Sequence record: OQ696342.1
DNA length: 44,581 nucleotides
Strand: one strand, 5' to 3'
DNA from: Escherichia phage vB_EcoS-K1_SXAU_B4
Position 1 is the stretch's first letter, and each line of letters opens with the position of its first letter. Made by a program: the position numbers and the translations under genes. The notes under the pieces are model-generated. The model was not told the DNA's origin, did no database searches, and saw only the letters and a program-made list of their open reading frames with translations. Shown here piece by piece: positions 6,760 to 34,741 of this stretch.

Positions 6760-6786
6760 TCAGTTATCGAAACGAGGAGATGAAAA

Positions 6787-7308: not shown

Positions 7309-7312
7309 AACT

Positions 7313-8914: not shown

Positions 8915-8948
8915 TCACTTATCGAAACGAGAGATAAGGAATTTAGAA

Positions 8949-9134: not shown

Positions 9135-9172
9135 GGGCCTTACCTTAATAATTATTTAATCGGAGGTGTGCT

Positions 9173-9403: not shown

Positions 9404-9412
9404 GAAATCACC

Positions 9413-9721
9413 ATGCGGAAAAGAAAGAAGACTACTAAAAAATACGCGTACAGATATCTTGTCGGGGATTCTAGCGAGTTCCCGGATTCAGAAGACTACG
9501 ATACATTTAAAGCTGTTATATTCGCCAGCGGATGTGTTTATGTGTGCCAACATTACGACGTCGACGCTCCGCAAACAATACACATCCTGTACGCCGATTT
9601 CAGAACGTCTGAATGGATGAAATCATGGTTCAATGGTTTTACAGATTCAATAATATCAAGAGATATTGGCAATCATAAACTCGTAGCGCTAAGGGAAGTC
9701 TGGAAAACTAAGGCCCCATAA
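9413..9721 (+). CDS. Hypothetical protein (moron island)
   Basis: 102 aa ORF followed by a strong terminator. Confidence 0.45.
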   Translation: MRKRKKTTKKYAYRYLVGDSSEFPDSEDYDTFKAVIFASGCVYVCQHYDVDAPQTIHILYADFRTSEWMKSWFNGFTDSIISRDIGNHKLVALREVWKTKAP

Positions 9722-9733
9722 CGGGGCCTTTTT
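9710..9733. terminator. Bidirectional rho-independent terminator (aaggcccc-ataac-ggggcctt + TTTTT)
   Basis: GC stem plus T-run between the plus-strand island and the minus-strand portal gene end. Confidence 0.7.
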
Positions 9734-11207: not shown

Positions 11208-11219
11208 TGAATAATCCTC

Positions 11220-12470: not shown

Positions 12471-13051
12471 TCCTCTACCTCGCCCATGTTCGTTGTTACG
12501 ATTTTACCTACAGGCTCCGCAACACTGAAAATAATCTCGGTTGGTGCTGTTTCTTCGGTGGATTCGACTGGTTTATCTTTACTGAGGCCCAGCTTCGCGG
12601 CAGCAAACGTAGCCGAGATGCCCGCGGCCCCTGTCTCAGTGAAATATGCCTCTTCAAGCGCCTGTGCTGTCTCATATGCTTCTGCAAATGCGGGAATCTC
12701 ACGCAGCCACAGCTTAATAATCGGGATAGTGACGCCGATGTGTAAGGCGAAGCGGGCCAGTGACGGCGGTTTATCCTGAATCAGGGGGCGTTCGTCACCC
12801 TTAGACGTGGGCACAAGCTTCCACGACGTGCGGTCGAAGAACTCGATTAGCGCGTCGCAATAGTCCGGGTCCCACAACGCGGCGGAATTACGGGATGATT
12901 GGTAAAGGCTCTGTTTGCCACGCGGTCGTTTACGGCGACGGTTTGCGCTAACAGCTTCTTCATGTGCAGCTTGCACCACCTCTGGCGATGGCTGCTTAAG
13001 TTTCAGCTTCATAGAATCCCCTTGCATATGCGTCTGACCATCAGAGCGCAC
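12467..13051 (-). CDS. terS: Putative terminase small subunit
   Basis: 194 aa, directly upstream of and overlapping terL by 4 nt; no motif recognised. Confidence 0.5.
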   Translation of the reverse strand: MRSDGQTHMQGDSMKLKLKQPSPEVVQAAHEEAVSANRRRKRPRGKQSLYQSSRNSAALWDPDYCDALIEFFDRTSWKLVPTSKGDERPLIQDKPPSLARFALHIGVTIPIIKLWLREIPAFAEAYETAQALEEAYFTETGAAGISATFAAAKLGLSKDKPVESTEETAPTEIIFSVAEPVGKIVTTNMGEVEE

Positions 13052-14894: not shown

Positions 14895-15133
14895 TTCTTC
14901 TCTCCCGCATAAGCTGCTTTCAGTGTCTGCATCGCAGCGAACCAGAACGCGGACGCCGGAATGCTGTTGCTCAGGTTACTAACGGCGATGCGTGCCATCA
15001 GTTGTGCGTCTTTGAATGCTTCGATATCTGTGATTTTCATCTTCTCTACTCCGTTCTCGTTGTCGATGAAGTAAATATAGTAGGGTCGACGGTAATAGTC
15101 AACTAGTCATTGCAGGAAATAGATAAAAAAAAT

Positions 15134-17996: not shown

Positions 17997-18160
17997 TTAC
18001 CCCGAACTCGTTGATGATTTGCGCCTTGTAGAAGTTGCCGTTTGAGGCCAGGTGGTACGCCTGCACCATTGTCATCTCGCGATAAGTTGCTGCGCTGTTT
18101 TCGAATTCCATAACCATCAAAGTAACCATCTTCTGTCTCTCCTCTCGTTTGTGTAAATGA

Positions 18161-18189
18161 ATAGTAGCCTAGTCTATCCCAGTGTGCAA
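18161..18189 (-). promoter_or_regulatory. Sigma70-type promoter TTGCAC-N17-TACTAT on the minus strand (cassette family copy)
   Basis: Reverse complement gives TTGCAC (18189..18184), 17-nt spacer, TACTAT (18166..18161); followed by leader AAACGAGAGGAG and ATG 18129. Confidence 0.55.
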
Positions 18190-18521
18190 GTAAATTTTAT
18201 TGGTGTTTGTATTGTTGCATCTCCTGCAATAGTCGCTTCGATTGTTGCGTTTAACTTAGTGTCGCCTTTTGACGACACTAAGTTAAAGTTGTACGCTGCT
18301 GTGTAGCAGCGTAAGACACAAAGACAAATAGTAAACTATTGACCTGTTACACCACCTGTTACACCGGCCCGATATTGCGCTCCGGCTTTCCACGCCCGCC
18401 ACGCGAGACGCGTCTTAACGTTCAGGTATGCTTTCTTTGGTCCCTTGTTAACCGGCAACCCCTCGACGATGGCCCACCGTTCAAATGCTTGTCTCATAAA
18501 TCAACCCCCACAATTAAAATA

Positions 18522-19147: not shown

Positions 19148-19181
19148 TTCTAAATTCCTTATGTCTCGTTTCGATAAGTGA

Positions 19182-19210
19182 ATAGTATCCTATTATATTG
19201 GGGTGTGCAA
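19182..19210 (-). promoter_or_regulatory. Sigma70-type promoter TTGCAC-N17-TACTAT on the minus strand (cassette family copy)
   Basis: Reverse complement: TTGCAC (19210..19205), 17-nt spacer, TACTAT (19187..19182); leader TCACTTATCGAAACGAGACATAAGGAATTTAGAAATG. Confidence 0.6.
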
Positions 19211-19443
19211 GAGAATAGTTACGTTGCCGTTGAGATTCTTCAGGTGGGGTTGTGCCTTTATTCTTATTACTTGGTAACTAAAGGGCAGGCCCTAAGCCTG
19301 CCCAATAATCGTTACATTTTTACTGTTGCGAATCTACGGCACATTAAGAAACAGTAGATATTTCAGTGGGTTACTTTTTTAAATGAGATTTAGATACACT
19401 TATCCTTAAACCCCAAGGCAAGCATCTCAGCTGTCTGGGAGGG

Positions 19444-19475
19444 GTTGACGAATCCCTCGGGGAGGGTTCGTCAAC
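19444..19475. promoter_or_regulatory. 32-bp near-perfect palindrome GTTGACGAA-tccctcggggaggg-TTCGTCAAC in the divergent intergenic region (candidate operator or structured element)
   Basis: 9-bp perfect inverted arms plus an inner ccctc/gaggg inverted repeat. Confidence 0.4.
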
Positions 19476-19569
19476 TCCGTAATATATACAAGTCCCAAAA
19501 CCATTATACAAACATGTGTCAAGAACTTTCAATAACTTTTTTGTAAAGATTAAATATTGCAGGGATTGG

Positions 19570-19598
19570 TTGCTTTTACATTCCCGCTATCCTATACT
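19570..19598 (+). promoter_or_regulatory. Candidate sigma70 promoter TTGCTT-N17-TATACT for the plus-strand replication operon
   Basis: Hexamers with 17-nt spacing, about 30 nt upstream of the ATG at 19630. Confidence 0.45.
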
Positions 19599-19629
19599 CA
19601 GCTTCACCAAACAAACAGGAGATATAGAA

Positions 19630-19812
19630 ATGCAACATTACATGACACAGAATGAAGTAGCCGAGCGTATTGGGGTAACGCGTCAGACAATTAATAACTG
19701 GTTGCGCAGTGGTAAATTCCCTGACTGCTGTATTAAGGTTATGGGTCGCCGTTTACCAGGTACATTTGACCGTAATAAAGTTGAAGAATGGATTAAGGAG
19801 AATGTGAAATGA
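19630..19812 (+). CDS. Small HTH DNA-binding protein (AlpA/Xis-like)
   Basis: 60 aa from ATG 19630 (RBS GGAG); TQNEVAERIGVTRQTINNWLRSGKFP is HTH-like; the longer ORF from 19516 would start upstream of the promoter. Confidence 0.55.
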   Translation: MQHYMTQNEVAERIGVTRQTINNWLRSGKFPDCCIKVMGRRLPGTFDRNKVEEWIKENVK

Positions 19813-20099
19813 AAGGTGTAATTTTCCACAATAAAGCAGAAAACGAAGTGTATATGGTTCACTCCGTGGCGGGAGAGTTCGCTTTATGCTTCAACATCTC
19901 TTGCCACCTCGATACCTACCGGCCTTTCTGTGTAGAAACAGAAATGAAGCTAATTAGCTTACGCCAACTAAGCACCATGTCGGCGTCGCTTAACGTAAGA
20001 GATAATCTCGAGTATATCGACTTCTATTTCGGCGATGATTTGGTCGAGGAATATTTTGAAGAGTATAAAAATTTGCTGGAAGAGTTGGCTAAACGGTAA
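19809..20099 (+). CDS. Hypothetical protein
   Basis: 96 aa; ATGA-type overlap with the upstream gene. Confidence 0.5.
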   Translation: MKGVIFHNKAENEVYMVHSVAGEFALCFNISCHLDTYRPFCVETEMKLISLRQLSTMSASLNVRDNLEYIDFYFGDDLVEEYFEEYKNLLEELAKR

Positions 20100-20293
20100 A
20101 AAGAAACCCCAACGCCAGAACGTCGGGGCTAAAGTACAAATCATCAAAGTAAGCACAAGGATTATACAATGGCAAAGTTAATAGTTCCACAGCTACGCCG
20201 CCAGAAACACGGCGCTGATTTCTTCGCACCGGTAAAGATGAACCGAGCAATGCGTCGTATGCAGGAAGCCTTAGAACGTGCGGAGAAAAAGAA

Positions 20294-22501
20294 ATGAATA
20301 TTGTTTTTGCAACGCTGCGTAACACATTCGATAAAAACCCTGTAGAGCGTGAAATGCCGCTGGAGCAGTTCGTAGAGTATGTCTGCGATACATCGAAGCG
20401 TTTGGCCGTAGACCCGTCGTGGACTAAGGAAGAGTACGACGCCGCCAAGATTAAGCAGAAGGCTATTGCTCCTGTTGGCGGTCGCCGTAAGAACGCTATT
20501 CTGGAAGACAGTGTGGTTAAGTTCGACTTCGACCATCTCAACCGTACTCAGTACCGCGACCTTACCCGCAAATTCAAGAACGCGCCGTTCTTCAATATTC
20601 TGCACACAACGGCATCGCATCAGCACGCGTGTAAAAACGGGGATTACGCATTCCGCGTTCTGGTTCCGGCTCGCACGCCGTTTAACTCTAACGACGCGTG
20701 GATGGTGCAACGTGCTATTTGTGCAGAGTTAGGGATAGACGAAGCGCTGCGCGACCACTGCACGGAAGACGGCAACCGCCTTATCTACCTGCCGCATAAA
20801 GAGTCGAAGATAACGGTTACAGAAGGGCGTGTTATCCGTGCCGCGCGGTACATCAAGAAAGCCGAAGAAATGGGGTTGCGTAAGCGTGAGGCTAAAACAC
20901 TTGCTTCCGATGAGCATGGGCTTAACGCTGATATAGCGCATTTCTGCGAAGCCGAGCTTGGCCTTGATGCGTTATCTTCCGGGCGCGGGTATGAAGTGCC
21001 ATGCCCCAACGAGCATCTGCACACGGGCAAAGGCTCCACCAGCATCATGCTCGACGGTAAAGAAGTGCGCTTCGTGTGCCAGCACACGAACAATGGCGCT
21101 TGCACCGAGCTTAACCGCCGGCAACATTTGGCCCTGCGTATGTGCGGTCTTCCGGATGAGCTTAACGTAGACAAGCAACCTATCAGTATTAACAGCATTC
21201 GTGCGGCTCTGCCTGATTTACCGGATGAAGAGATTGAAGAACTGCACCGCACAGAGAACGAGGAGCCTGTAACTTGTACACTGGAAGACCTTGAAGACGA
21301 TGACGAGTTACCTGAACCGGTAAAGGCTGATTTCGTCGTTGAAGGGTACATGCCGTCGGATTGCATCTGGGACATCGTCGGGGAGTCAGGCACGTACAAA
21401 TCATTCTATACGCTGGGGATGATGTACCTTAGCGCCGCCGGATACCGGTTTGCAGGCGCTGACACACAGCGTTGCCACCATTTCTATATCGACGGTGAGG
21501 GTGGCGCAGCTACCCGCACACGTATAGATGCGCTCGCGGCTAAGTATGGCGAGGAAGGTAAAGATTATGTACACGTCATCGATATGGGTGAAGTCGGAAA
21601 ACTGAAAAACCTGATTAAGTTAATGCGTGAAACTGCTGGCGATGAACCAATTGGCATGGTTGCGTTCGACACCCTAAACCAGACCCTGGCCCTGACGATT
21701 GATAAGTTCGACGAGAACAGTTCATCGACGGCAATCGGCATGGGTAAAGTTATCGCCATCCTGAAAGAAGTACGCGATGCTACTAAAGCCGCAGTAGGCG
21801 TTGTTCACCATACCCCGAAGGGTGGAAAGAAAGCCCGCGGCAGTGGAGCATTGTATGCTGGCGTCGATGTGGAACTGACAATTGAACGCGCCACTGACCG
21901 TCAAATAAACGTATACCACTCAAAATTTAAGCACGGGCCTCAACAGAAAACGGTTGGCATGGTGCTGGAGTCGGTACAGTTCCGCGAAGCACCGCCGCCG
22001 AAAGAGTACCGTGCGGTTGAGTTCCTCGGTAGCACAGAGGAATACGGCACAATCGTAAACCTCGACCTGCCGGAACCACACAAGGCGCTTGTTCTGATGC
22101 CGTGGGGCTTCGAGCCGTTCAAAACTGACGAGGAGAAAGAGCGGGAAGAAGGGTTAACTAACGAAGGTAAACAAAAAGTAAAGGAAGAAGTTAAACGCGG
22201 CAGGGATGAAGTAAGGAAGGAGTCGATACTTTCGGCACTGGAAGACCTGCAACAGTCAGATGACACAGGTCGCGGTTTTACTCAGCAGCAGATAGTGGCC
22301 CGTTCCGGTGACTTTTCTGTGACTAACACCCATCTTGATAAAATGCTGAAAGATGGGGAACTAATGCTAGGCTGCGACGCTAATGGCGAAGTAGTACCGA
22401 GAACATATCGTATACCCGAAAGAATAGGAGATAGGTTAAGGCCGAAGACGATATACGAGCCAAATGAGATGCTGATAGTGACAGAGGAAGATTTAGAATA
22501 G
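20294..22501 (+). CDS. DNA primase/helicase (N-terminal primase-like domain with a Cys/His cluster, C-terminal RecA/DnaB-like ATPase)
   Basis: 735 aa; CPNEHLHTGKGS...CQH zinc-binding-like cluster; Walker A-like GESGTYKSF; acidic C-terminus. Confidence 0.75.
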   Translation: MNIVFATLRNTFDKNPVEREMPLEQFVEYVCDTSKRLAVDPSWTKEEYDAAKIKQKAIAPVGGRRKNAILEDSVVKFDFDHLNRTQYRDLTRKFKNAPFFNILHTTASHQHACKNGDYAFRVLVPARTPFNSNDAWMVQRAICAELGIDEALRDHCTEDGNRLIYLPHKESKITVTEGRVIRAARYIKKAEEMGLRKREAKTLASDEHGLNADIAHFCEAELGLDALSSGRGYEVPCPNEHLHTGKGSTSIMLDGKEVRFVCQHTNNGACTELNRRQHLALRMCGLPDELNVDKQPISINSIRAALPDLPDEEIEELHRTENEEPVTCTLEDLEDDDELPEPVKADFVVEGYMPSDCIWDIVGESGTYKSFYTLGMMYLSAAGYRFAGADTQRCHHFYIDGEGGAATRTRIDALAAKYGEEGKDYVHVIDMGEVGKLKNLIKLMRETAGDEPIGMVAFDTLNQTLALTIDKFDENSSSTAIGMGKVIAILKEVRDATKAAVGVVHHTPKGGKKARGSGALYAGVDVELTIERATDRQINVYHSKFKHGPQQKTVGMVLESVQFREAPPPKEYRAVEFLGSTEEYGTIVNLDLPEPHKALVLMPWGFEPFKTDEEKEREEGLTNEGKQKVKEEVKRGRDEVRKESILSALEDLQQSDDTGRGFTQQQIVARSGDFSVTNTHLDKMLKDGELMLGCDANGEVVPRTYRIPERIGDRLRPKTIYEPNEMLIVTEEDLE

Positions 22502-22510
22502 GTAAAAAGA

Positions 22511-22529
22511 AAGGGGCATTAAGCCCCTT
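22511..22529. terminator. Hairpin aaggggc-attaa-gcccctt with a T-run on the minus strand; terminator between convergent genes
   Basis: 7-bp GC stem; plus-strand A-run upstream becomes a T-run on the minus strand. Confidence 0.55.
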
Positions 22530-22734
22530 CACCTAGCGCCAGCCACTTGGCGTCTACTTGCAGCACTTCCGCCAGTTTAAACAGCGTCGCAGGGCGGACG
22601 TCCTGAGTTACCCCAAGTGCCAGCTGGTTAATAGCGCCCTGGGAAACGCCGGTAAGGACCGCCAGGCGGCGCTGGGAGATGCCGAGTTCTTTACGGCGTT
22701 GTTCTACACGGATACCTAGTTCAGATGGTTGCAT
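22519..22734 (-). CDS. XRE-family (Cro/CI-type) HTH transcriptional regulator
   Basis: 71 aa; QRRLAVLTGVSQGAINQLALG is a classic HTH; encoded divergently from the downstream plus-strand genes. Confidence 0.75.
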   Translation of the reverse strand: MQPSELGIRVEQRRKELGISQRRLAVLTGVSQGAINQLALGVTQDVRPATLFKLAEVLQVDAKWLALGEGA

Positions 22735-22798
22735 GTCAGTTACTCCTTAGTCAGTTGATATGTGAATAGTACCATATTAATTATTTTAGAAAAGCCCA

Positions 22799-22828
22799 TT
22801 GACAACATGAATAGTTCGCTATTATAGT
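22799..22828 (+). promoter_or_regulatory. Sigma70-type promoter TTGACA-N18-TATAGT with an AATAG-N4-CTATT core in the spacer
   Basis: -35 at 22799..22804, -10 at 22823..22828; leader AAACGAGAGGAGAGAAACAAATG. Confidence 0.55.
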
Positions 22829-22859
22829 TAACCCATACCAAACGAGAGGAGAGAAACAA

Positions 22860-23330
22860 ATGTTAGAGAAATTCTTAGTATTACTGGAACGTTTCGTAGT
22901 TGCGCATGAACTTATTGCGGCGAATAGCGTGAAACAGGTTGTCGTTGCTGAAACTGCAACAATCGAGACTACTGTTTCGAAAGAAGCAACAAAAGAAATC
23001 CCGGTCGAAGGCGAAGACATCGTCGACACTAAACCGGCAGAAGAAGAGAAGCCCAAACGCAAGCCGCGTAAAGCTAAAGTAGAGGAACCGACGCCAGAGA
23101 CGGAAGAAGAGAAAGAAGAAGTCGATTATCAGTCTCTGCGCGACCAGATTCAGGCTATCGACGATGCAATTAACGAAGGTCCGAGCGATGCCGCGTGCGA
23201 TGATTCCGATGAACTGCTGGAAGAGTTCACCGGTAAGAAGATGAAGATTGCCGCGATTAAAGACGAAGACCTGGCTGAATATCTTGAACGCCTGACAGCA
23301 ATCAAGAACAAGTATTTCGAAGAAGAATAA
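22860..23330 (+). CDS. Highly acidic hypothetical protein
   Basis: 156 aa; long D/E-rich stretches (EEEKPKRKPRKAKVEEPTPETEEEKEE...). Confidence 0.5.
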   Translation: MLEKFLVLLERFVVAHELIAANSVKQVVVAETATIETTVSKEATKEIPVEGEDIVDTKPAEEEKPKRKPRKAKVEEPTPETEEEKEEVDYQSLRDQIQAIDDAINEGPSDAACDDSDELLEEFTGKKMKIAAIKDEDLAEYLERLTAIKNKYFEEE

Positions 23331-23373
23331 CTACCCCGCGGCCTTCTGGCCGCTTTAACTGAGGGTCGGAAAT

Positions 23374-23646
23374 ATGATTTACCAACTCTACCGCGCCGTA
23401 GACAGGCGGGATAGCACAGAGGTGCTATGGCTGTTGCGCGCGCCGTCCGGTGCTCACCTGATGGAAGAGATGGCGTACCTAGGCAAAGTACCGCGCCCTA
23501 AAGATATAGGCCGACACGTGTCACAGATTAAGCGCACGACATTCGCCAAACCTGACTTTTATGTCTTCGAGTCGATGTATGGCTGGGCTATGCATTGTCA
23601 CCATCAGACACGGCATTTAATTGACCAGTGGGAGAGCAGGGTATGA
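23374..23646 (+). CDS. Hypothetical protein
   Basis: 90 aa ORF. Confidence 0.45.
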   Translation: MIYQLYRAVDRRDSTEVLWLLRAPSGAHLMEEMAYLGKVPRPKDIGRHVSQIKRTTFAKPDFYVFESMYGWAMHCHHQTRHLIDQWESRV

Positions 23647-24164
23647 ATTGGCATGAACTGTTTGACTATGACCCTGTCACAGGGAAATTGTATTGGAAAA
23701 TAAGCCCTTCTCAAGCTGTAAAGGCTGGCGATGAGGCTGGTACTCTTTGCGGGGGAGGGCGTAGCTGTGACAAGAAATATTTAAGGGTGTGCTATAGGAG
23801 AAAGTTTAAGCAGGTACACCACGTAGTATGGGAAATGTTCAACGGACCTTTAAAAGATGGTGAGGAGATTGACCACATAAATCATATAAGAACAGATAAT
23901 AGGCTAGAGAATTTAAGGAAGGTGTACCGCAGCGATAACGCCAAAAATAGAAGTATGCCAATAAACAATACTTCCGGGGTGCATGGTGTTTCATACTTCT
24001 ATCGTACCAGTATGTGGGTTGCAAGAATAGGGGTAAATGGTAAGTCTATATTTTTAGGGAAATACAATAATTTAGAAGAAGCGGCGCTCGCCAGACGACA
24101 GGCAGAAGTAACATATGGGTTTCATAAAAATCACGGAGCTAAAAAGAATGACTTTAAAAGCTAA
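23643..24164 (+). CDS. Free-standing HNH homing endonuclease with an AP2-like DNA-binding domain
   Basis: EIDHINHIRTDNRLENLR (HNH) followed by SGVHGVSYFYRTSMWVARIGVNGKSIFLGKYNNLEEAALAR (AP2-like); ATGA overlap with the upstream stop. Confidence 0.8.
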   Translation: MNWHELFDYDPVTGKLYWKISPSQAVKAGDEAGTLCGGGRSCDKKYLRVCYRRKFKQVHHVVWEMFNGPLKDGEEIDHINHIRTDNRLENLRKVYRSDNAKNRSMPINNTSGVHGVSYFYRTSMWVARIGVNGKSIFLGKYNNLEEAALARRQAEVTYGFHKNHGAKKNDFKS

Positions 24165-25395
24165 AGATAGGAGCGGGAGTAACGACGTACACGCCTTATT
24201 GTCTCCATCCGGTGCTAAGAAATGGCTAACATGTCCTGCGTCGCTGATATGCGAAAAAGATATCCCCAACACTTCCGGCAGGGCCGCAGTGTTAGGTACG
24301 GCAATGCATAGCATTTCTGAATATCATTTAAACGCGTATATACGCGGCACTGCGCTGCCGTTAGAGCGCGAAGTAGGTGCTTACGTGCTGGACGAGGGCA
24401 AAGGCCCGATTAAGGCGCTAATCAGCCCGATGAAAGGTGCGGTACTGATTACGGCGGACATGATTGAACAGGTGCGAAAGTACACTGACTACTGCAAAGC
24501 GATTATCGATGTAGCAACTTACGCCAAGCTGGAAATGCGCGTCAATCTTACTGAGGTATTGCATCCGGGGTATGAAGGCGTCGAGACGTTCGGGACTGCT
24601 GACCTTGTTGCCGTACAGGAACTGGCTAATACCGATGAACATATGCTCATTATCGGCGACCTTAAAACAGGACGGCATCGTGTCGAAGCAAAAGAAAACA
24701 AGCAGCTTATGCTTTACGCTCTCGGTGTTTATCGCAGACTAAAGAGACGTTATAGCATCACAGTTGTGCGTCTGGTGATATTCCAGCCGTACGCTGGTGG
24801 CGCGTCGGAGTGGGACATCTCAGTTGAAGGTCTGGAACTGTTCGCTAAGTTTGCGCAAAAACGTGCGCTGTTAGCTCTTGATGCTTATTCCCGTGGCAAG
24901 AAGAATCTGAAAGCGTCGGACTTCAGGCCGTCGGTAGATGGCTGTCAGTGGTGTCGTTTCTCCGAACAGTGCGCCGCGCGTACAAAAACCGTTAATTCTG
25001 TACTGGCGGAAGAACTGGAGGACGACTTTGCGCTGGAACTGACGCCGGAGCAACTCGTCGCTGAGTATGAGAAGTTGCCGTTGTTGCGCCAGCACATCGA
25101 CAAGGTTGAGAAAGCGATGGCCACCGCGTTGCATTCTGGTAAGAAAGTGCCAGGGTACAAACTGGTTGAGGGTAAGATGGGCAACCGTGCGTGGAAAGAC
25201 GCCGAGAAAGTGACGGAACTGTACGGCGACAAGCTGACTAAAGAAGTGCTCATGACGCCGACTGAAGCGGTTAAAGTAATACCGGAGGAAGAACTGAAAG
25301 ACTTCATCACCCGCAAGCCGGGCGCGCCATGTGTTGCAACGGTAGACGACAAACGTCCTGAGTGGAATCAGGTTAGTGAAGAAGATTTGGAATAA
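24148..25395 (+). CDS. PD-(D/E)xK exonuclease (RecB/Cas4-like, DUF2800-type)
   Basis: GDLKTGRH...E.KENKQLMLYALG nuclease core and a C-terminal Cys cluster (CQWCRFSEQC); start placed at ATG 24148 with RBS GGAG. Confidence 0.7.
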   Translation: MTLKAKDRSGSNDVHALLSPSGAKKWLTCPASLICEKDIPNTSGRAAVLGTAMHSISEYHLNAYIRGTALPLEREVGAYVLDEGKGPIKALISPMKGAVLITADMIEQVRKYTDYCKAIIDVATYAKLEMRVNLTEVLHPGYEGVETFGTADLVAVQELANTDEHMLIIGDLKTGRHRVEAKENKQLMLYALGVYRRLKRRYSITVVRLVIFQPYAGGASEWDISVEGLELFAKFAQKRALLALDAYSRGKKNLKASDFRPSVDGCQWCRFSEQCAARTKTVNSVLAEELEDDFALELTPEQLVAEYEKLPLLRQHIDKVEKAMATALHSGKKVPGYKLVEGKMGNRAWKDAEKVTELYGDKLTKEVLMTPTEAVKVIPEEELKDFITRKPGAPCVATVDDKRPEWNQVSEEDLE

Positions 25396-25399
25396 AGTG

Positions 25400-25428
25400 T
25401 TGACACCTGAATAGTTAGCTATTATATT
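25400..25428 (+). promoter_or_regulatory. Sigma70-type promoter TTGACA-N17-TATATT with an AATAG-N4-CTATT core
   Basis: -35 at 25400..25405, -10 at 25423..25428, upstream of the SSB-like gene. Confidence 0.55.
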
Positions 25429-25484
25429 TCTAATCACTGGCCGGGCAGCTTCCCGGAGTAAACTGAAAACTGAGGAATCGAGAA

Positions 25485-26111
25485 ATGGGACTGAAATTAA
25501 ATCTGCGTAAAGTAAACACTGCATGGGTTAACGTATTCGAACGCGAAAAAGACCGTGAAAACGATGATGGCTCAATCACTAAAGGTCAGTACAGCGCAAC
25601 TATCATCCTGCCGTCCAACCATGCTCAAATCGACGCGCTCTACGATACCGTCTACGCTGTAGTTGAAGAAGCATTAGGCGCAGCCGCTGCCGAGAAGTGG
25701 ATGAAGTCCAACTACGGCGAAGGTAAGCACATGGATAAATGCGCGATTAAAGACATTGCTGAGCGCGACAATCCGTTCGAAGACTTCCCGGAAGGCTTCT
25801 ACTTCAAAGCGAAGGCACAGAAACAGCCACTGATTGTAACCTCTAAAAAAGGCGAGACTCAGGTAGAGCAGGACTTCAACGTAGATGGCGAACAGATTGA
25901 AGGCGAACAGGTTTACAGCGGCTGCGTAGCTAACGTAAGCGTCGAAATCTGGTTCAGCCAGAAATACAAAGTCCTCGGCGTTAACCTGCTGGCAATTAAA
26001 TACGTTGGCGAAGGTAAAGCGTTCGGCGGTTCTAAAGTCGCTGCAAGCGTCAATGACCTGGAAGACGACGAAGAAGATGAAGCACCGCGCCGCGAACGTC
26101 GTCGCCGCTAA
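25485..26111 (+). CDS. Single-stranded DNA-binding protein (DUF2815-like)
   Basis: 208 aa with an acidic C-terminal tail (DLEDDEEDEAPRRERRRR); conserved position next to the DUF2800-like nuclease and Pol A. Confidence 0.65.
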   Translation: MGLKLNLRKVNTAWVNVFEREKDRENDDGSITKGQYSATIILPSNHAQIDALYDTVYAVVEEALGAAAAEKWMKSNYGEGKHMDKCAIKDIAERDNPFEDFPEGFYFKAKAQKQPLIVTSKKGETQVEQDFNVDGEQIEGEQVYSGCVANVSVEIWFSQKYKVLGVNLLAIKYVGEGKAFGGSKVAASVNDLEDDEEDEAPRRERRRR

Positions 26112-26131
26112 TATCTGAATCAATTTAACTA

Positions 26132-26154
26132 AGGCCCTTCATTGGGCCTTTTTA
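26132..26154 (+). terminator. Rho-independent terminator (aaggccc-ttcatt-gggcctt + TTTTT)
   Basis: GC stem followed by a T-run between the SSB and polymerase genes. Confidence 0.65.
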
Positions 26155-26170
26155 CTAAGGGTCGAAAATA

Positions 26171-29100
26171 ATGAGTTACCTGTTCTTAGACTTTGAAACA
26201 TTCTCCGAAGCCGATTTAAAGAAAGTTGGCTCCTACGCTTACGCCGAACACCCGACTACAGAAGTGCTTATCTGTACCTATGCTTTTGATGACGAGCCTG
26301 TGCAGGTATGGGATTGCACCAACGGCAGCGACATGCCGGGGGATTTGCACCGCGCCTTGCGCCGCCTGGTTAAGCCAAACAGTCGCATCAAGATGGTGTG
26401 GCACAACGGCTCAATGTTCGATCGCCTAATCATGAAACACTGCTGGGGCTTTGATATTCCGGTAAGCAACACCATCGATACGATGATTTGGGCGTTTCGT
26501 CACGCGCTGCCTGGTTCACTTGATGCGTTGTGTGAAGTGCTGGGGGTATCTGCTGACAACGCGAAGGATAAACGCGGCAAGGCGCTGATTCAGCGTTTCT
26601 CTAAACCGACGCCGAAGAACTACAAAATACGCCGCTACACCGCCGAAACACACCCGGACGAGTGGGCGCTGTTCATCAAGTACGCTGTGAGCGACATCAC
26701 TGCGATGCGTGAAGTCTTCCATAAGCTGCCGCGTTGGGGTAACTCAGAGTTCGAGGACCGTGTACTGGAACTGGACCAGTTAATCAATGACCGTGGGTTT
26801 AAGGTTGACGTGGCACTGGCGGAAGCCGCGATTGAAGCCGTGGAGAAACACAAAGCGAAGTTACAGGAAGAAGCCCAACGCAAATACGGCGGCTCGCTTA
26901 CCGGTAAAGACTTCCTTCCTATTCTGCGTGAACTGGCCCCAGCGCACCGAATCCACAACGCGCAGAAGTCGACACTGAATGACCTGCTGGCGGATGATGA
27001 TTTACCTGACGACGCCCGCACTATTATCGAAATGCGCCTCGGGGCCGCGTCCACAGCGTCAACGAAATATACACCGCTGCTGCTGGGCCGCTCTTCGGAC
27101 GACCGCCGTCGTGGTTGCTTGCAGTACGGCGGGGCAAAACGCACTCTGCGATGGGCCGGTAAAGGCTTCCAGCCGCAGAACCTCGCGCGCGGGTACTATC
27201 ACGATGACGAACTGGATAAAGGCATTTCAGCGTTACTTAAGGGTCGTGCGCATCGCCGTTTCGATGTAGCCAAGCTAACGGCATCGACGGTTCGTAGCTG
27301 CATCATTCCGGAAGCAGGACATAAGTTTGTCGTCGCCGATTACTCGAACGTTGAAGGCCGGGGGCTTGCGTGGCTGGCGGGTGAAGAAACCGCGCTTGAT
27401 ACTTTCCGCGCCGGGTTGGATATTTATTGCGTAACCGCAGGTAAGATGTTTGGCATGGACCCAGACGACATTAAGAAAGAACGTAAAGACTTGCGCCAGA
27501 TTGGTAAAGCCTGCCTTCACCGCCATACCCAAGTTTTGACCGATGGCGGATTTAAGGATATTATGGCGGTCACATCGACAGATAAAGTATGGAGTGGTGA
27601 AAAATGGGTGAATACAAAAGGCGCGCACCTTATGGGGTGGAAACCGGTAATAAATGTGGACGGGGTGCTAATGACCGAAGACCACAAAATCTTGGCGCAT
27701 TCCTGGAAGCAGGCAAAGCAACTCGCTTCAAACAGATATATGATGGGCCTCGCCCTGGAGAGAGGTATGGACGCTTGGTTATCCTGCGCGAGTTACCAAA
27801 ACGACAAGGCCAAAGACAACTACTCGTCCAATGTGATTGCGGAGAGATGCCAGGGCGGGTCTATTATGACAACGTCAGAGCGGGTAAAACCACTCAATGC
27901 AACCGCTGCGCCCTTGAAGCAACAAAAAAATATCGTAAACAGTATTTCTGCTACGAAGACGCAATGCCGGATGATGCGCACAGAACGCGATTACTCAACC
28001 GGCTGTCAGCGGCGATCACGCGAACAACAAGCCCCAGGGATAAGGGTTATAAAAACTATGGGGCAAGAGGCATCACGGTATTCGACCAGTGGAGGACTGA
28101 TAAAAGGTCTTTTCTTAGATATGTTCAAACTCTGGAAGGCTGGGATGACCCGAACCTCGAAATGGATAGAATCGACACAGACGGTAACTACGAACCTGGA
28201 AACATTCGGTTTGTCAGCCGTTCTGAAAACTGCCGAAACAGACGGCAAATACCCGAGCTTCAACGAAAGTATGATGCAGCCGTTGCCCGCATTGCTGAAC
28301 TTGAGCGGGAAATTAACCTACTGCGAGCCGGTGTACGACCTGATTGATGTGGAAGACGGCAACCGTTTTCTTATAGCCTCAGACTCTGGCTTTCTTGTGG
28401 CGCATAACTGCGAGCTTGGCCTCGGCTACGAGGGTGGCGTCGGGGCGTTCGTTCAGTTTGCTAAAAACTTAGGTCTCGACCTTATTGAGATGGCAAAAAC
28501 AATGGACGGGACTTTCCCCGACCACATCTGGGCTGCTACCGCACGTGGGTATGAGTGGGCGCGTATTCAGGAAGCAAAGCGGCCACCACATCCAGGTGAA
28601 AAGGACGACCGACCATCGTATATTCTGGACAAGAAAGTGTGGCGCACATGTGACGCAATCAAGCGTATGTGGCGCGAGTCACACCCCGAAACAGTAGCGT
28701 TCTGGCGCGACCTTAAAGACGGAATTTTAGCCGCTGTTCGTAATCCTGGTCGTGAATTTTGGGCGGGAGCGCACTTGCGCGGGAATGGGGAAAGGGCTAT
28801 CCGCATATGGCGCACTGTAGAATTTGATTCATCCGGCAGGAAGGTTCCAGGTTGGTGGTTGTGTGTGGAGTTGCCGTCAGGCCGCATCCTCTCGTATCCG
28901 GGAATCGGCGTTAGTGTGACAAAGGAAACAGACGAAGACGGACGAGTAAACACGAATGTGCGAATCAAGTATCAGGGTGAAAACCAGTTAACCCGCCAAT
29001 GGACTACCCTGTACACCCACGGCGGCAAAGCCTGCGAAAACATTGTTCAGGCGCTGTGCCGTGATTTACTCGCATATGCAATGATTAATGTTGAGGGTGG

Positions 29101-29269
29101 CGGGTATCCCATCGTGCTTTCTGTACACGATGAACTGGTGTGCGAAACTCCAGACACACCGGAATACAATGTCGCAGAGCTTGAGCGGTTGATGTGCGCG
29201 TTGCCCGAGTGGGCAGAAGGCTTCCCTCTTGTAGCGGAAGGGCAGGAGTTAAAACGCTATGCTAAGTAA
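26171..29269 (+). CDS. Family A DNA polymerase (3'-5' exonuclease plus polymerase domains) interrupted by an in-frame intein at 27512..28408
   Basis: Exo motifs DFETFS, HNGSMFD, YAVSDI; Pol motif A VVADYSNVEGRGLAW; motif B RQIGKA|C...|CELGLGYEGG split by the intein; motif C SVHDELV. Confidence 0.9.
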   Translation: MSYLFLDFETFSEADLKKVGSYAYAEHPTTEVLICTYAFDDEPVQVWDCTNGSDMPGDLHRALRRLVKPNSRIKMVWHNGSMFDRLIMKHCWGFDIPVSNTIDTMIWAFRHALPGSLDALCEVLGVSADNAKDKRGKALIQRFSKPTPKNYKIRRYTAETHPDEWALFIKYAVSDITAMREVFHKLPRWGNSEFEDRVLELDQLINDRGFKVDVALAEAAIEAVEKHKAKLQEEAQRKYGGSLTGKDFLPILRELAPAHRIHNAQKSTLNDLLADDDLPDDARTIIEMRLGAASTASTKYTPLLLGRSSDDRRRGCLQYGGAKRTLRWAGKGFQPQNLARGYYHDDELDKGISALLKGRAHRRFDVAKLTASTVRSCIIPEAGHKFVVADYSNVEGRGLAWLAGEETALDTFRAGLDIYCVTAGKMFGMDPDDIKKERKDLRQIGKACLHRHTQVLTDGGFKDIMAVTSTDKVWSGEKWVNTKGAHLMGWKPVINVDGVLMTEDHKILAHSWKQAKQLASNRYMMGLALERGMDAWLSCASYQNDKAKDNYSSNVIAERCQGGSIMTTSERVKPLNATAAPLKQQKNIVNSISATKTQCRMMRTERDYSTGCQRRSREQQAPGIRVIKTMGQEASRYSTSGGLIKGLFLDMFKLWKAGMTRTSKWIESTQTVTTNLETFGLSAVLKTAETDGKYPSFNESMMQPLPALLNLSGKLTYCEPVYDLIDVEDGNRFLIASDSGFLVAHNCELGLGYEGGVGAFVQFAKNLGLDLIEMAKTMDGTFPDHIWAATARGYEWARIQEAKRPPHPGEKDDRPSYILDKKVWRTCDAIKRMWRESHPETVAFWRDLKDGILAAVRNPGREFWAGAHLRGNGERAIRIWRTVEFDSSGRKVPGWWLCVELPSGRILSYPGIGVSVTKETDEDGRVNTNVRIKYQGENQLTRQWTTLYTHGGKACENIVQALCRDLLAYAMINVEGGGYPIVLSVHDELVCETPDTPEYNVAELERLMCALPEWAEGFPLVAEGQELKRYAK
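27512..28408 (+). mobile_element. Intein (299 codons) inserted in polymerase motif B
   Basis: Block A CLHRHTQVLTDGGFKDI, block B VLMTEDHKIL, blocks F/G VYDLIDVEDGNRFLIASDSGFLVAHN followed by Cys+1; the in-frame central part has no recognisable endonuclease motif. Confidence 0.8.
27604..28347 (+). CDS. HNH endonuclease (HNH_3-like) encoded in an alternative frame, nested entirely inside the intein
   Basis: Own RBS GGAG (27590..27593) and ATG 27604 just after an in-frame stop; Cys cluster CDCG...QCNRC and HNH core NYGARGITVFDQW...LEMDRIDTDGNYEPGNIRFVSRSENCRNRR. Confidence 0.7.
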   Translation: MGEYKRRAPYGVETGNKCGRGANDRRPQNLGAFLEAGKATRFKQIYDGPRPGERYGRLVILRELPKRQGQRQLLVQCDCGEMPGRVYYDNVRAGKTTQCNRCALEATKKYRKQYFCYEDAMPDDAHRTRLLNRLSAAITRTTSPRDKGYKNYGARGITVFDQWRTDKRSFLRYVQTLEGWDDPNLEMDRIDTDGNYEPGNIRFVSRSENCRNRRQIPELQRKYDAAVARIAELEREINLLRAGVRPD

Positions 29270-29390
29270 ACTGATTATCGCGATACTGGCGGGATTCGCC
29301 GCCGGTGTCTACTGTCACGAGGGTCAATACGGCATGATTGCCGCTGTATTGGGCATGTTCATCGCAATTTATCTGTGGGTGCTGGAATGA
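29259..29390 (+). CDS. Small membrane protein (43 aa)
   Basis: Manually found; overlaps the polymerase stop; hydrophobic MLSKLIIAILAGFAAGV...; below the ORF-track cutoff. Confidence 0.35.
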   Translation: MLSKLIIAILAGFAAGVYCHEGQYGMIAAVLGMFIAIYLWVLE

Positions 29391-29476
29391 AAATTTACTG
29401 GTTCTACGAAGAAGACTGCCGACTCTGCCCGCGCTGCGGTATTGAACATACGAAACGTGAGGGGTGCGTATTATGA
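29387..29476 (+). CDS. Small zinc-ribbon peptide (29 aa)
   Basis: ATGA coupling; DCRLCPRCG...C cysteines. Confidence 0.3.
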   Translation: MKIYWFYEEDCRLCPRCGIEHTKREGCVL

Positions 29477-29625
29477 CAATGTTTGTATTTTGGACGATAG
29501 CGACCATGCTCGCACTGTTACTTGGTGCAGGAATAGCTGCGATGTTCTGTTATGGCCTGTTCTTTAAGTTTGTCGGTGTTGCCGTTCTCAGTGGAGCTTT
29601 CCTTACTTGGATTCTGCGCTCATGA
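29473..29625 (+). CDS. Small membrane protein (50 aa)
   Basis: ATGA coupling on both ends; two hydrophobic segments. Confidence 0.35.
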   Translation: MTMFVFWTIATMLALLLGAGIAAMFCYGLFFKFVGVAVLSGAFLTWILRS

Positions 29626-29924
29626 CCCAGGAAGGCAAGATTCAGAAATACGCAAAAGAGCGATTCGAGGCCATCGGTGGCCTCGTTCGCAAATTGTCGT
29701 ACGAAAATAGAGCAGGCGCTCCTGACCTGCTGGTAATTCTCCACGGCGGCGTCATCTGGTTCGTCGAGGTTAAGAAAGACGAGAACACGAAGCCAGACCC
29801 ACACCAGTTACGGGAGCACGAGCGGATGCGTAAGCGTGGCGCAAATGTTTTTGTCGTCGGTTCGTTTAAACAGGTTGACGCCCTAATAGCAGACTATTAT
29901 AGTAGTCATACACCAACAATATAA
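29622..29924 (+). CDS. VRR-NUC domain nuclease
   Basis: GAPDLLVILHGGVIWFVEVKK matches the VRR-NUC PD-(D/E)xK pattern; start placed at ATG 29622 (ORF track begins at TTG 29607). Confidence 0.7.
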   Translation: MTQEGKIQKYAKERFEAIGGLVRKLSYENRAGAPDLLVILHGGVIWFVEVKKDENTKPDPHQLREHERMRKRGANVFVVGSFKQVDALIADYYSSHTPTI

Positions 29925-29935
29925 GGAATTGAGAA

Positions 29936-30127
29936 ATGAAACACGAATATGACCGCAAACCAGCCCGTGACATCGTACCTGGCGACATGATTTTCAACGT
30001 TAAGACCCGCCGCCCTGTTGCCGTTGATACAGTGTTTGTAGAGTCGAACGGTAAACTGGTTATCGAAGATGTAACTGGTAATGTTACAGCGTTCGGGCGT
30101 AAAGAGCTGGTGCTGGTGGCAAAATGA
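29936..30127 (+). CDS. Hypothetical protein
   Basis: 63 aa ORF. Confidence 0.45.
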   Translation: MKHEYDRKPARDIVPGDMIFNVKTRRPVAVDTVFVESNGKLVIEDVTGNVTAFGRKELVLVAK

Positions 30128-30904
30128 ACTATTACAACGAATGGGATAAGGGCGCAGCCGCGTGGCTGCGCGAATTAATAAAACAGGGCCACATACCTTT
30201 TGGAGTTGTAGATGAAAGAAGCATTACCGAAGTTAAGCCAGAAGACCTCGACGGGTTCACCCAGTGTCATTTTTTCGCTGGTATCGGCGGCTGGCCTCTC
30301 GCGCTCAGACTTGCGGGAGTTTCGGAAGACACGCCTTGCTGGACGGGAAGCCCGCCTTGCCAACCGTTTAGTGCGGCAGGAAAGCAACTCGGACAGTTCG
30401 ACCCTAGACACCTCGCGCCCGTATTCCTCGACCTCATCAGCGAGTGCCGCCCTCCAGTCCTCTTTGGGGAGCAGGTTGCGCCAGCAATTGCAAAATCGTG
30501 GATGTGCGATTTACAAACTCACCTGGAAGGAGAAGACTACGCCGTCGGGTTTGCTGTACTCCCAGCTTGTAGCGTCGGCGCACCGCACAAAAGAGAACGA
30601 CTGTTCTTTGGTGCGTACAACCTGGCCAACACCGACAGCGAACGACTACAGGGGGAGCGGAGAGACAGTGATTCGCAAGGACGGGAAGGACAGGACATTC
30701 GACAGGCTGGACTACTCGACGGAGCAGGGTCTGAAAATAATACAACCTATTCGCATCACGGCTTCTGGTCAGATGCTGACTGGCTCGGATGCCGGGATGG
30801 AAAATTCAGGCCGGTTGAACCCGGCACATTCCCGCTGGCTAATGGGATTCCCGCCAGAGTGTGACGATTGCGCGGTTACGGCAATGCCATCATCCCGCAA
30901 GTAG
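30124..30904 (+). pseudogene. DNA (cytosine-5)-methyltransferase with an apparent +1 frameshift near 30605..30625
   Basis: N-terminal motifs in the 30124 frame: FAGIGG (I), PCQPFS (IV), FGEQV (ENV-like, VI), PHKRERLFFG (VIII). C-terminal motifs WPTPTANDYRG and LNPAHSRWLMGFP sit in the +1 frame (ORF 30212..30904). Confidence 0.6.
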
Positions 30905-30940
30905 CCGCTGAATTCATAAAGGCGTTCATGGGGGCTGTAA

Positions 30941-32365
30941 ATGAGTAAGTTTCAAAGGCGCGAGTACCAGAAGCTCATGACCTCATTCATGTTGCGGCAC
31001 CATCGCTGTAATATTTGGGCAAGCATGGGTGCCGGGAAGACTGGCAGCGTACTGTGGGCTTTAAACCGCCTGTTCCGCAACGGGCAACTTACGGACGACG
31101 ACCGCGTGTTAATACTCGCCCCGCTGCGCGTTGCGTCCGGCACATGGCCAGCAGAACAAGAGAAATGGCAATTCCCGTGTCTGAATGTCGTAGATGCGAC
31201 AGGTTCGGAGAAACGCCGCATCGCGGCGCTGGAGTCAGACGCTAACGTTGTGTGCACGAACTACGAAGTTATTGAATGGCTGATTGATTACTACGGCAAA
31301 GACGACTGGCCTTTTACGGTTATTGTTGCCGACGAGAGCACGAAGCTAAAGTCATTCCGTAGCCGTTCGGGCGGTAGTAAGAGGGCAAAGGCTCTTAGCA
31401 AAGTGGCGTTCGGTAGGGTTAAGCGTTTCATCAACCTTACGGGTACGCCATCGCCAAACGGCCTCAAAGACTTGTGGGGGCAGAACTGGTTTATCGACGC
31501 CGGCGAGCGCCTCGGGTCTTCATACACGGCATTCACTGACCGCTGGTTTAACTCGGTACAGAAAGGCAAATCGGCTATGGCGCGGGAGTATCACGCCCGC
31601 CCTGGTGCGGATAATGAAATTCACCAGAAGATGAAGGACATTAGTCTCACGATTGACGCTGCCGAGTGGTTCGGTTGTGAAGCGCCGATTATCGTACCGG
31701 TTGAAATTGACCTGCCGAAGAAAGCGCGTCAGGCGTACATCGATATGGAGGAAAAGTTATTCGCGGAACTGGAGAGTGGAGAAGTTGAAGCGGCTAACGC
31801 GGCGGCGAAGACGTCGAAGTGCTTGCAGATTGCATCCGGCGCCGTGTATGTTTCGGGACCAGACGGCGAAGCAACGAAAGACTGGGAGAAAGTGCACGAC
31901 ACGAAACTTGATGCGCTTGAGTCCATTGTTGAGGAGTTACAAGGCGCACCGTTGCTGGTGGCCTATCAGTTTAAGCATGAACTGGAGCGCATCCTGAAAC
32001 GTTTCCCGCAGGCACAGTCGTTTGCCAAAGGTGCTAAGGGTAATAAGCAGATGGAAGCGTGGAACCGTGGTGAGATACCTATGCTTCTGATACACCCGGC
32101 CTCCGCGGGCCACGGGCTGTCGCTACAACACGGCGGGCATCACATGGCTTTTATGAGTCAGGGGTGGAACCTGGAGCATTATCTGCAGGTTATCGAGCGT
32201 ATAGGCCCAGTAAGGCAGATGCAATCCGGATACAAACGGTCTGTATTCATTTATCAAATAATAGCCCGAGATACTCTTGATGAAGTTGTTGCCGCGCGTA
32301 CCGACGAGAAAAAATCGGTACAGGAAGAGTTGCTTAATTACATGAAGAGACGAGGTAAGAAATGA
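30941..32365 (+). CDS. SF2 (SNF2/DEAD-like) helicase
   Basis: 474 aa; Walker A GAGKTG, DExx box VADESTKL, C-terminal helicase region. Confidence 0.8.
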   Translation: MSKFQRREYQKLMTSFMLRHHRCNIWASMGAGKTGSVLWALNRLFRNGQLTDDDRVLILAPLRVASGTWPAEQEKWQFPCLNVVDATGSEKRRIAALESDANVVCTNYEVIEWLIDYYGKDDWPFTVIVADESTKLKSFRSRSGGSKRAKALSKVAFGRVKRFINLTGTPSPNGLKDLWGQNWFIDAGERLGSSYTAFTDRWFNSVQKGKSAMAREYHARPGADNEIHQKMKDISLTIDAAEWFGCEAPIIVPVEIDLPKKARQAYIDMEEKLFAELESGEVEAANAAAKTSKCLQIASGAVYVSGPDGEATKDWEKVHDTKLDALESIVEELQGAPLLVAYQFKHELERILKRFPQAQSFAKGAKGNKQMEAWNRGEIPMLLIHPASAGHGLSLQHGGHHMAFMSQGWNLEHYLQVIERIGPVRQMQSGYKRSVFIYQIIARDTLDEVVAARTDEKKSVQEELLNYMKRRGKK

Positions 32366-32499
32366 ACATCATAGCCCCGATTCCAGCATTGCAAAAACGT
32401 ATCAAGGAACTAGAAGAAGAGGTTCTGCGCCTACGGCAGCAAAGAGACGCTGCTAACGCGCAACTGGCGTTTGTACTGGAGAAATTATCAGAAGAGTAG
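32362..32499 (+). CDS. Small coiled-coil protein (45 aa)
   Basis: Manually found; ATGA overlap with the helicase stop; MNIIAPIPALQKRIKELEEEVLRLRQQ. Confidence 0.3.
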   Translation: MNIIAPIPALQKRIKELEEEVLRLRQQRDAANAQLAFVLEKLSEE

Positions 32500-32503: not shown

Positions 32504-32523
32504 AAGGCCCCGTTTGGGGCCTT
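32504..32523. terminator. Bidirectional terminator hairpin (aaggcccc-gttt-ggggcctt)
   Basis: 8-bp GC stem between the convergent replication and tail modules. Confidence 0.6.
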
Positions 32524-34729: not shown

Positions 34730-34741
34730 ATAGAGTCCTCT

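Follow-up and report, generated by a model that had tools for sequence, protein, structure and literature searches.

A 14-bp inverted repeat at the promoters of a Kagunavirus-type phage is probably the operator of a 434 Cro-like repressor

434 Cro and the 434 repressor bind 14-bp dyads as dimers, and in the P1 C1 regulon and at the stoperators of mycobacteriophage L5 gp71 a single repressor reads a short motif genome-wide and so controls many operons. Here we examine the inverted repeat AATAG-N4-CTATT (the dyad) in Escherichia phage vB_EcoS-K1_SXAU_B4 (sequence record OQ696342.1). The window, by which we mean the whole stretch of 44,581 nucleotides, is the complete 44.6-kb genome of a Kagunavirus-type siphophage (Guernseyvirinae). 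As judged from the sequence comparisons described below, the dyad is probably the operator of a phage-encoded dimeric helix-turn-helix (HTH) repressor, most probably the product of the following gene.

22519..22734, minus strand: gene for the 71-aa XRE/434-Cro-like HTH protein (matches to Pfam HTH_3 and to 434 Cro), the proposed reader of the dyad

The best solved relatives of this XRE protein are 434 Cro (E = 7e-6, residues 6-68) and the 434 repressor, with which it has in common a length of 71 aa, a single Cro/C1-type HTH and an alignment over the whole length. Its Pfam HTH_3 match scores 48.2 bits against a cut-off of 23, and HTH_19 and HTH_31 match as well. The sites are also alike: both the 434 operators (ACAA-N6-TTGT) and the dyad are 14-bp inverted repeats with about one helical turn between half-site centres (9 bp in the dyad), both overlap promoters, and both include a site on the regulator's own promoter that is weaker or, in the window, predicted to be so. 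However, the half-site in the window is AATAG and not ACAA, the phage, which is of a type regarded as strictly lytic, lacks a CI partner, an integrase and a lysogeny module, and in place of the one OR/OL pair of 434 the candidate operators are spread over at least a dozen promoters. As with P1 C1 and L5 gp71, the motif is repeated over the whole genome and would tie many operons to a single regulator. The P1 and L5 sites are asymmetric and their phages temperate, whereas the window sites are symmetric and lie in promoter cores; the L5 stoperators, moreover, have one orientation and lie within transcribed regions, and the window sites do neither, 12 of the 13 copies being at promoters or in intergenic DNA.

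The window holds 8 exact copies of AATAG-N4-CTATT against 0.01 expected, and 13 copies against 1.14 expected when up to one mismatch is allowed; no shuffle of the window equalled either count, and AATAG is the only 5-mer with more than two N4 dyads. Six of the eight exact copies are wholly intergenic, one overlaps a stop codon, and one is in the final 20 nt of a gene with the next gene just downstream (P ~8e-7). Thus the motif does not occur at a comparable frequency within genes but is concentrated in the 5.6% of the window that is non-coding. The only copy deep within a gene, a one-mismatch copy at 35638 in a tail gene, was taken as a chance match, given the 1.1 one-mismatch matches expected. 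The original prediction, which had proposed the dyad as a candidate operator for a Cro-like regulator from the sequence alone, had correctly located the exact copies starting at 6747, 8902, 19181, 22810, 25410 and 41834 and the one-mismatch copies at 18160 and 22765, but it had overlooked the exact copies at 18327 and 29885 and the one-mismatch promoter copies at 6656 and 15094. It had also put the everted palindrome AACTATTCGAATAGTT at 6661..6676, where the actual position is 6663..6678.

Relative to the -35 and -10 hexamers the dyad takes three registers. In class A promoters it lies over the -10, with the layout TTGCAC-N10-[AATAG-nnTA-CTATT], so that the right half-site falls within the -10 TACTAT (TTGCAC-N17-TACTAT). 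In class B promoters (TTGACA-N4/5-[AATAG-N4-CTAT]-TATAnT) it fills the spacer, from about -25 to -12; these are the near-consensus promoters of replication genes. In class C promoters the -35 TTGACT is itself embedded in the dyad ([AnTAG-TTGA-CTnTT]), and both sites are upstream of late-gene blocks. The sites and associated elements are as follows, exact dyads being given without a strand.

22810..22823: exact dyad AATAGTTCGCTATT, filling the spacer of P_hyp47, class B
22799..22828, plus strand: P_hyp47, TTGACA-N18-TATAGT (11 of 12 consensus positions), driving hyp47, the HNH endonuclease gene and the exonuclease gene
25410..25423: exact dyad in the spacer of P_ssb (TTGACA-N17-TATATT, 25400..25428), class B
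29885..29898: class B, exact; fills the TTGACG-N17-TATAGT spacer (29875..29903), within the resolvase gene's final 20 nt and ahead of the gene at 29936
6747..6760: class A, exact; overlaps the -10 of the promoter (TTGCAC 6731..6736, TACTAT 6754..6759) that drives the plus-strand cassette 6787..7308
8902..8915: class A, exact; overlaps the -10 of the promoter (TTGCAG 8886..8891, TACTAT 8909..8914) that drives the plus-strand cassette 8949..9721
41834..41847: class A, exact; overlaps the -10 of the promoter (TTGCAC 41818..41823, TACTAT 41841..41846) that drives the plus-strand cassette 41862..44457
19181..19194: class A, exact; overlaps the -10 of the promoter (TTGCAC 19210..19205, TACTAT 19187..19182; minus strand) that drives the early leftward operon, in the divergent early control region
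18160..18173, minus strand: class A, one mismatch; overlaps the promoter's -10 (TTGCAC 18189..18184, TACTAT 18166..18161)
22765..22778, minus strand: one-mismatch dyad AATATGGTACTATT, a degenerate class A site overlapping the TACTAT -10 of the XRE gene's promoter
15094..15107, minus strand: class C, one mismatch (ACTAG-TTGA-CTATT); encloses the -35 of TTGACT-N17-TATATT (15102..15074) and precedes the small-gene and terminase block
6656..6669, minus strand: class C, one mismatch (AATAG-TTGA-CTTTT); encloses the -35 of TTGACT-N17-TAAGCT, precedes the Rz, scaffold and capsid block and forms part of the everted palindrome
18327..18340: exact dyad flanked by a direct repeat and a hairpin; neither direction shows a recognisable -35
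22510..22530, minus strand: intrinsic terminator directly 3' of the XRE gene

The spacers of the dyad promoters are 17-18 bp long, and class B carries the 20-bp element of class A flipped relative to the gene (TGAATAG-N4-CTATTATA). Standing at three different distances from the bases that polymerase contacts, the dyad cannot serve as a recognition element for RNA polymerase. Overlap with a promoter seems to be all that it requires, as would be expected of a separate binding site for a protein, and the variation in register fits a repressor operator. The overlap with spacer or -10 described in the original prediction was seen again, and overlap with the -35 (6656, 15094) can now be added; as it had also stated, the divergent region between the XRE gene and hyp47 has two copies, the one-mismatch site at 22765..22778, which is presumed to be the autoregulatory operator of the XRE gene, and the exact site at 22810..22823. 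We also considered an RNA element. A scan of the window with Rfam matched no family, the hairpin that the dyad could form is negligible (-1.0 to -1.9 kcal/mol), and the promoter geometry places the dyad upstream of the predicted transcription starts, which together rule this reading out.

At divergent junctions the class A elements have an additional opposite-strand TCGATA-N17-TATATT, at 6770..6742 alongside the 6747..6760 dyad and, rightward, at 19171..19199, where the 19181..19194 dyad also fills its spacer. In both elements (6742..6770 and 19171..19199) the TCGATA of the conserved leader serves as the opposite-strand -35. These elements look as if they fired both ways, towards early cassette genes in one direction and towards late-gene blocks in the other. 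This arrangement offers an analogy to phi29 p4, a small DNA-binding protein at divergent early and late promoters. However, p4 does not belong to the XRE family, its binding site is upstream of the late promoter, and no activation is seen in the window data.

Orthologous sites in about 100 related loci from IMG/VR were compared by per-position entropy. Half-site positions gave 0.00-0.09 bits, against 0.39-0.74 for the N4 and 0.21-0.48 for the 8-bp flanks, which upholds the claim of the original prediction that conservation exceeds what the -35 and -10 hexamers need. Averaged over the ten half-site positions, the entropy was 0.02 bits for P_hyp47 and 0.00 for both P_ssb and the 19181-type class A promoter. 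At P_hyp47 the half-sites are invariant in 33 unique sequences while the N4 and flanks vary; at P_ssb the N4 is highly variable and the half-sites again invariant. The stretch between the dyad and the -35 varies even in length among relatives. On these alignments purifying selection is confined to the half-sites. The imperfect copies are kept as well: the dyad of the XRE promoter has the same mismatch in each of the 67 Kagunavirus loci examined (28 unique sequences), and class C copies always have exactly one mismatch, in either half. The 18160 dyad is exact in most relatives, and the 18327 dyad is conserved. In the Jerseyvirus Ent3, the dyad occurs at syntenic promoters in 4 exact and 4 near copies.

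The association of this type of protein with this type of site extends beyond the Guernseyvirinae. Six unrelated CI/Cro-type loci were retrieved solely by similarity to the XRE protein, to which their products are 38-43% identical. All six proteins have HTH_3 and share the recognition helix [ST]QGxIxQ; two of the five scanned in Pfam have Peptidase_S24 in addition, the remainder being shorter HTH_3 proteins. Their contigs have a GC content of 47-61% and no DNA similarity to the window. An exact A(A/T)TAG-N4-CTA(A/T)T is present within 100 bp of the gene at six of six loci, with a second array further off in four, where about 0.2-0.8 would be expected per locus; some of these dyads form arrays with a period of 24-25 bp. 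In these sequences the XRE subfamily thus goes with exactly this operator geometry. The CI-type repressors of uncultivated temperate phages (HTH_3 plus Peptidase_S24) therefore have the helix, the 14-bp geometry and the TAG/CTA core in common with the window system, but they differ from the window protein in the S24 autocleavage domain, found in those two scanned homologs, and in the classical arrays next to the gene.

Cornellviruses provide a further comparison. Their XRE homolog heads the helicase-primase operon rather than standing alone, and at orthologous promoters, again in the class B and class C geometries, they have a variant of the dyad, typically ATTAG-N4-GTATT. The pattern AWTAS-N4-STAWT was found 5 times in SE1 against 0.48 expected, 3 times against 0.07 in a 9-kb stretch of Shemara, and 4 times against 0.55 in VSiA, where 1 of 500 shuffles equalled the count. 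The pattern was set after SE1 had been seen; VSiA, which had not been inspected beforehand, replicated it.

SE1: variant dyads at 3081, 3782, 7098, 32106 and 33576
Shemara: variant dyads at 905, 4171 and 7990
VSiA: variant dyads at 7555, 34246, 37323 and 37939

Among ten early SE1 proteins tested there was no HTH protein besides the XRE homolog. On the sequences compared, the only HTH regulator common to all dyad-bearing genera is the XRE lineage. What is more, the dyad at the XRE gene's own promoter is imperfect in each genus: AATAT-GGTA-CTATT in Kagunavirus, ATTAC-TGTA-CTATT, with a divergent half-site, at the Jerseyvirus equivalent and, as read by eye in the sequence, ATTAC-TGAT-GTATA in SE1. 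Such an imperfect site fits autoregulation. The 434 Cro alignment, the unrelated CI/Cro loci and the Cornellvirus variant dyads thus lend computational support to the proposal that the dyad is a candidate operator for the Cro-like regulator.

From the existence of the motif, its enrichment, its location at promoters and its selective conservation, together with the protein family and the association of the subfamily with its operator in other phages, we infer binding, repression as the direction of regulation, and graded affinity. In the model we propose, host sigma-70 RNA polymerase would first fire the phage promoters, and the XRE protein, made from its own weak promoter, would accumulate. 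Its dimers would then bind the 14-bp dyads over the -35, spacer or -10 of at least a dozen promoters and occlude the polymerase. Promoters with exact dyads (those of replication, of the early leftward operon and of the plus-strand cassettes) would be shut first and more tightly, and those with conserved one-mismatch dyads (the promoter of the XRE gene and the two that precede late-gene blocks) more weakly. The overall effect would be comparable to Cro turning down early transcription.

Several observations weigh against this model. The recognition helices are SQGAINQ in Kagunavirus, SQSLITH in Jerseyvirus and TQSAISH in Cornellvirus. In Cornellvirus helix and dyad have both changed; the Jerseyvirus XRE protein, however, is only 48% identical, and its helix differs from that of Kagunavirus at 4 of 7 positions and resembles that of Cornellvirus, yet the Kagunavirus dyad is kept. 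In the lineages compared, helix and operator therefore do not co-vary cleanly. In Cornellvirus the sites consistently pair ATTAG on one side with AATAC on the other, an asymmetry that would not be expected of a symmetric dimer. Promoters that share the exact dyad (class A, opposite strand) also stand in front of some late-gene blocks, and for this reason a pure repressor model leaves late expression unexplained. Finally, the K1B4 RNA sequencing (RNA-seq) study, the only one in the group, puts the XRE gene among the middle genes and a second HTH gene, that of a 60-aa HTH_17 protein, among the early ones; it is too coarse to give the order of the promoters, and its gene numbers could be mapped only by inference from gene order. 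Natural relatives lacking XRE were sought, and the candidates VSe103 and NBSal007 both have it.

The HTH_17 protein is the other phage-encoded protein that might read the dyad, as a repressor or as an activator acting from the promoter spacer.

19630..19812, plus strand: gene for the 60-aa HTH_17 (excisionase-type) protein, the disfavoured rival reader

This protein is excisionase/MerR-like, its score of 28.1 bits falling just under the excisionase-domain cut-off of 28.8. Its phyletic pattern over three lineages at first spoke for it: the versions of Kagunavirus and Jerseyvirus, both of which have the exact AATAG dyad, are 80% conserved, and SE1 has neither the protein nor the exact dyad. The HTH of the protein is nearly invariant, unlike the XRE helix, and gene order makes its gene an early one in the RNA-seq study. 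The pattern was then weakened by two findings. Homolog searches found no HTH_17 protein in the Cornellviruses SE1, Shemara and VSiA, whose promoters nevertheless have a close relative of the dyad in the same places, so that the MerR-like regulator and the motif do not co-occur. In the Kagunavirus LM02P1, what is more, the HTH_17 helix is rewritten (VSPMTLNRW against VTRQTINNW, 67% identity) while the dyads are unchanged and the XRE protein is 96% identical. Proteins of the HTH_17 class usually bind direct or asymmetric repeats and not 14-bp dyads. MerR-like activation from the spacer was rejected on spacer length, 17-18 bp against the 19-20 bp of MerR-type promoters, and at 60 aa the protein is too short for a MerR-type dimerisation region. 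Its homologs are restricted to the Guernseyvirinae clade, with none outside it in IMG/VR or the phage collection, and thus provide no independent support. We consider it quite unlikely that this protein reads the dyad. A probable dyad-poor promoter, TTGCTT-N17-TATACT at about 19572..19600, precedes its gene; the phage-wide regulon suggested in the original prediction is thus nearly, but not strictly, phage-wide.

The dyad might instead have no dedicated regulator and belong to a promoter cassette spread by duplication or recombination, perhaps reflecting back-to-back -10-like hexamers of bidirectional sigma-70 promoters, its conservation then coming from promoter function or shared ancestry. 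The class A promoters do share a conserved block of about 45 bp, leader included, that precedes different cargo genes in different genomes; the elements at divergent junctions have -10-like hexamers on both strands (TACTAT; TATATT/TATGTT) with TCGATA as the opposite-strand -35; and the SE1 ortholog of P_ssb has kept the -10-proximal CTAT and lost the distal half-site. Simple duplication is inadequate, however, since the class A and class B promoters have only the dyad in common, and that flipped. The distal AATAG of class B, at -25..-21, is invariant while adjacent bases drift, and we know of no sigma-70 sequence requirement at these positions. The 18160-type class A promoters and the XRE promoter retain the dyad with no opposite-strand -10, the 18327 copy has no -35 whatever, and the same type of dyad forms the operator array of unrelated CI repressors. 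We therefore regard an origin in promoter structure as unlikely. Binding by a host (Escherichia or Salmonella) transcription factor would account for the motif being common to coliphages and Salmonella phages, whose hosts share regulators. The Salmonella Cornellviruses have a different variant, however, so the motif tracks phage lineage and not host; no enterobacterial regulator is known to us to have this consensus, and the OxyR half-sites ATAG/CTAT are spaced by 7 and not 4. A phage-encoded family member with a matching operator type explains the data better, and a host factor seems to us very improbable. An IMG/VR scan for TATAATAG-N4-CTATTCA returned multi-copy loci from 40-45-kb contigs, many of them Kagunavirus contigs already recovered by the protein searches, and single matches elsewhere at about the level estimated for chance.

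The same sites have been described before under another name. In the fBC-Eco01 paper (PMC9825357) seven promoters predicted by PHIRE, with the consensus tgAATAGTa-ccTATTat-T, are assigned to a phage-encoded RNA polymerase, and the GenBank record of that phage (OM272052) labels them "phage promoter 1-7 predicted by PHIRE". They are the same element at the same genomic places as the dyads of the window, and PHIRE picks these sites because they are the most repeated 20-mers. Seven PHIRE promoters are also listed in the paper on VB_EcoS-Golestan (PMC7203180). No RNA polymerase candidate was found among the open reading frames (ORFs) of the window or in the annotations of Bas70 and fBC-Eco01; all ORFs of at least 400 aa encode the portal, terminase, helicase-primase, exonuclease, DNA polymerase, helicase, tape measure, tail and tailspike proteins. 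The motif, moreover, is palindromic and occurs in both orientations and at three offsets within canonical sigma-70 -35/-10 pairs. As no RNA polymerase gene was found, the attribution fails; gene content rules out this reading, which we consider hardly credible, and the "phage promoter" labels of fBC-Eco01 are an annotation error. A literature search that included the motif strings found no paper proposing an operator or a regulator for the dyad.

Over 7.2 kb (19000-26200) the window matches phages such as Bas70 and fBC-Eco01 at about 92% identity. Placing the Bas70 proteins on it gave the following layout of the genome.

1..6616, 7340..8841, 9744..13051 and 32528..41709, minus strand: late structural genes
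19147 down to 13137, minus strand: leftward block of small genes and lysis genes
19445..22501 and 22860..32499, plus strand: rightward replication region
22519..22734, minus strand: the XRE gene, standing alone and leftward
6787..7308, 8949..9721 and 41862..44457, plus strand: three cassettes amid the late genes

The class A leaders of the cassettes are similar, CA(C/G)TTATCGAAACGAG at 6747 and 8902 and CACTTACACCAACAAT at 41834 (spans 6731..7333, 8886..9730 and 41818..44457). A near-identical terminator hairpin, AAGGCCCC-loop-GGGGCCTT, ends both short cassettes (7313..7333 and 9710..9730), and a third copy closes the replication operon (32504..32523). The cargo of the cassettes varies between relatives, which suggests that they are mobile promoter-terminator modules (morons). 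The region of the 18327 dyad (18290..18375) is flanked by two copies of the direct repeat GGTGTAACAGG (minus strand) and by the hairpin GCTGCTACACAGCAGC, an arrangement kept in relatives. To the right of the 19181 dyad lies a 430-bp non-coding leader (19195..19630) that contains strong hairpins at 19283..19303 and at about 19444..19476. On its minus strand a near-consensus promoter without a dyad (19532 to 19503, 11 of 12 positions) faces the minus-strand terminator 19303..19283, an arrangement that might yield a small RNA of about 200 nt. The very short hypothetical ORFs annotated in Bas70 as hyp56, hyp55, hyp25 and hyp49 (window 19178..19291, 19445..19543, 41746..41832 and 22808..22852) overlap promoter or operator elements or the adjoining non-coding leader and are probably not real genes. 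In the replication region, the DNA polymerase ORF 26171..29269 has 1032 aa against 726 aa in Bas70, with contiguous alignment only over residues 1-448; the Ent3 record annotates an intein in a polymerase of the same length, and an intein is likely here too. An HNH endonuclease gene at 23628..24164 (HNH_3 and a weak, sub-threshold AP2 match), between hyp46 and the exonuclease gene and missing at that place in Bas70, probably encodes a homing endonuclease.

The locus is most likely an ordinary Cro/CI-type repressor-operator pair in an uncharacterised lineage, and by this sequence-based account its main peculiarity would be that one operator serves most of the promoters of a lytic phage. Of the phages isolated for biocontrol and therapy of Salmonella and E. 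coli, those of the Guernseyvirinae (Jerseyvirus, Kagunavirus) are among the most frequent, and to our knowledge their transcription programme is essentially unstudied. A bolder extension, which we think doubtful, is that across Kagunavirus, Jerseyvirus and Cornellvirus one Cro-like protein may control nearly all transcription through one type of operator. The conserved exact or one-mismatch quality of the sites may then set early-to-late timing, and binding at the bidirectional class A cassettes may flip transcription from early cassette genes to opposite-strand late structural genes, as phi29 p4 does. If so, expression of the XRE protein would make cells immune to Kagunavirus and Jerseyvirus, whereas Cornellvirus would still infect them.

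Reading the dyad as an operator corrects the annotation of these sites in published Kagunavirus records, as demonstrated for fBC-Eco01, and would supply phage engineering with a compact set of repressor and promoters that is easily moved. It gives a concrete model for the timing of gene expression in the Guernseyvirinae and predicts cross-immunity groups, in which Kagunavirus and Jerseyvirus would share an operator and Cornellvirus would differ.

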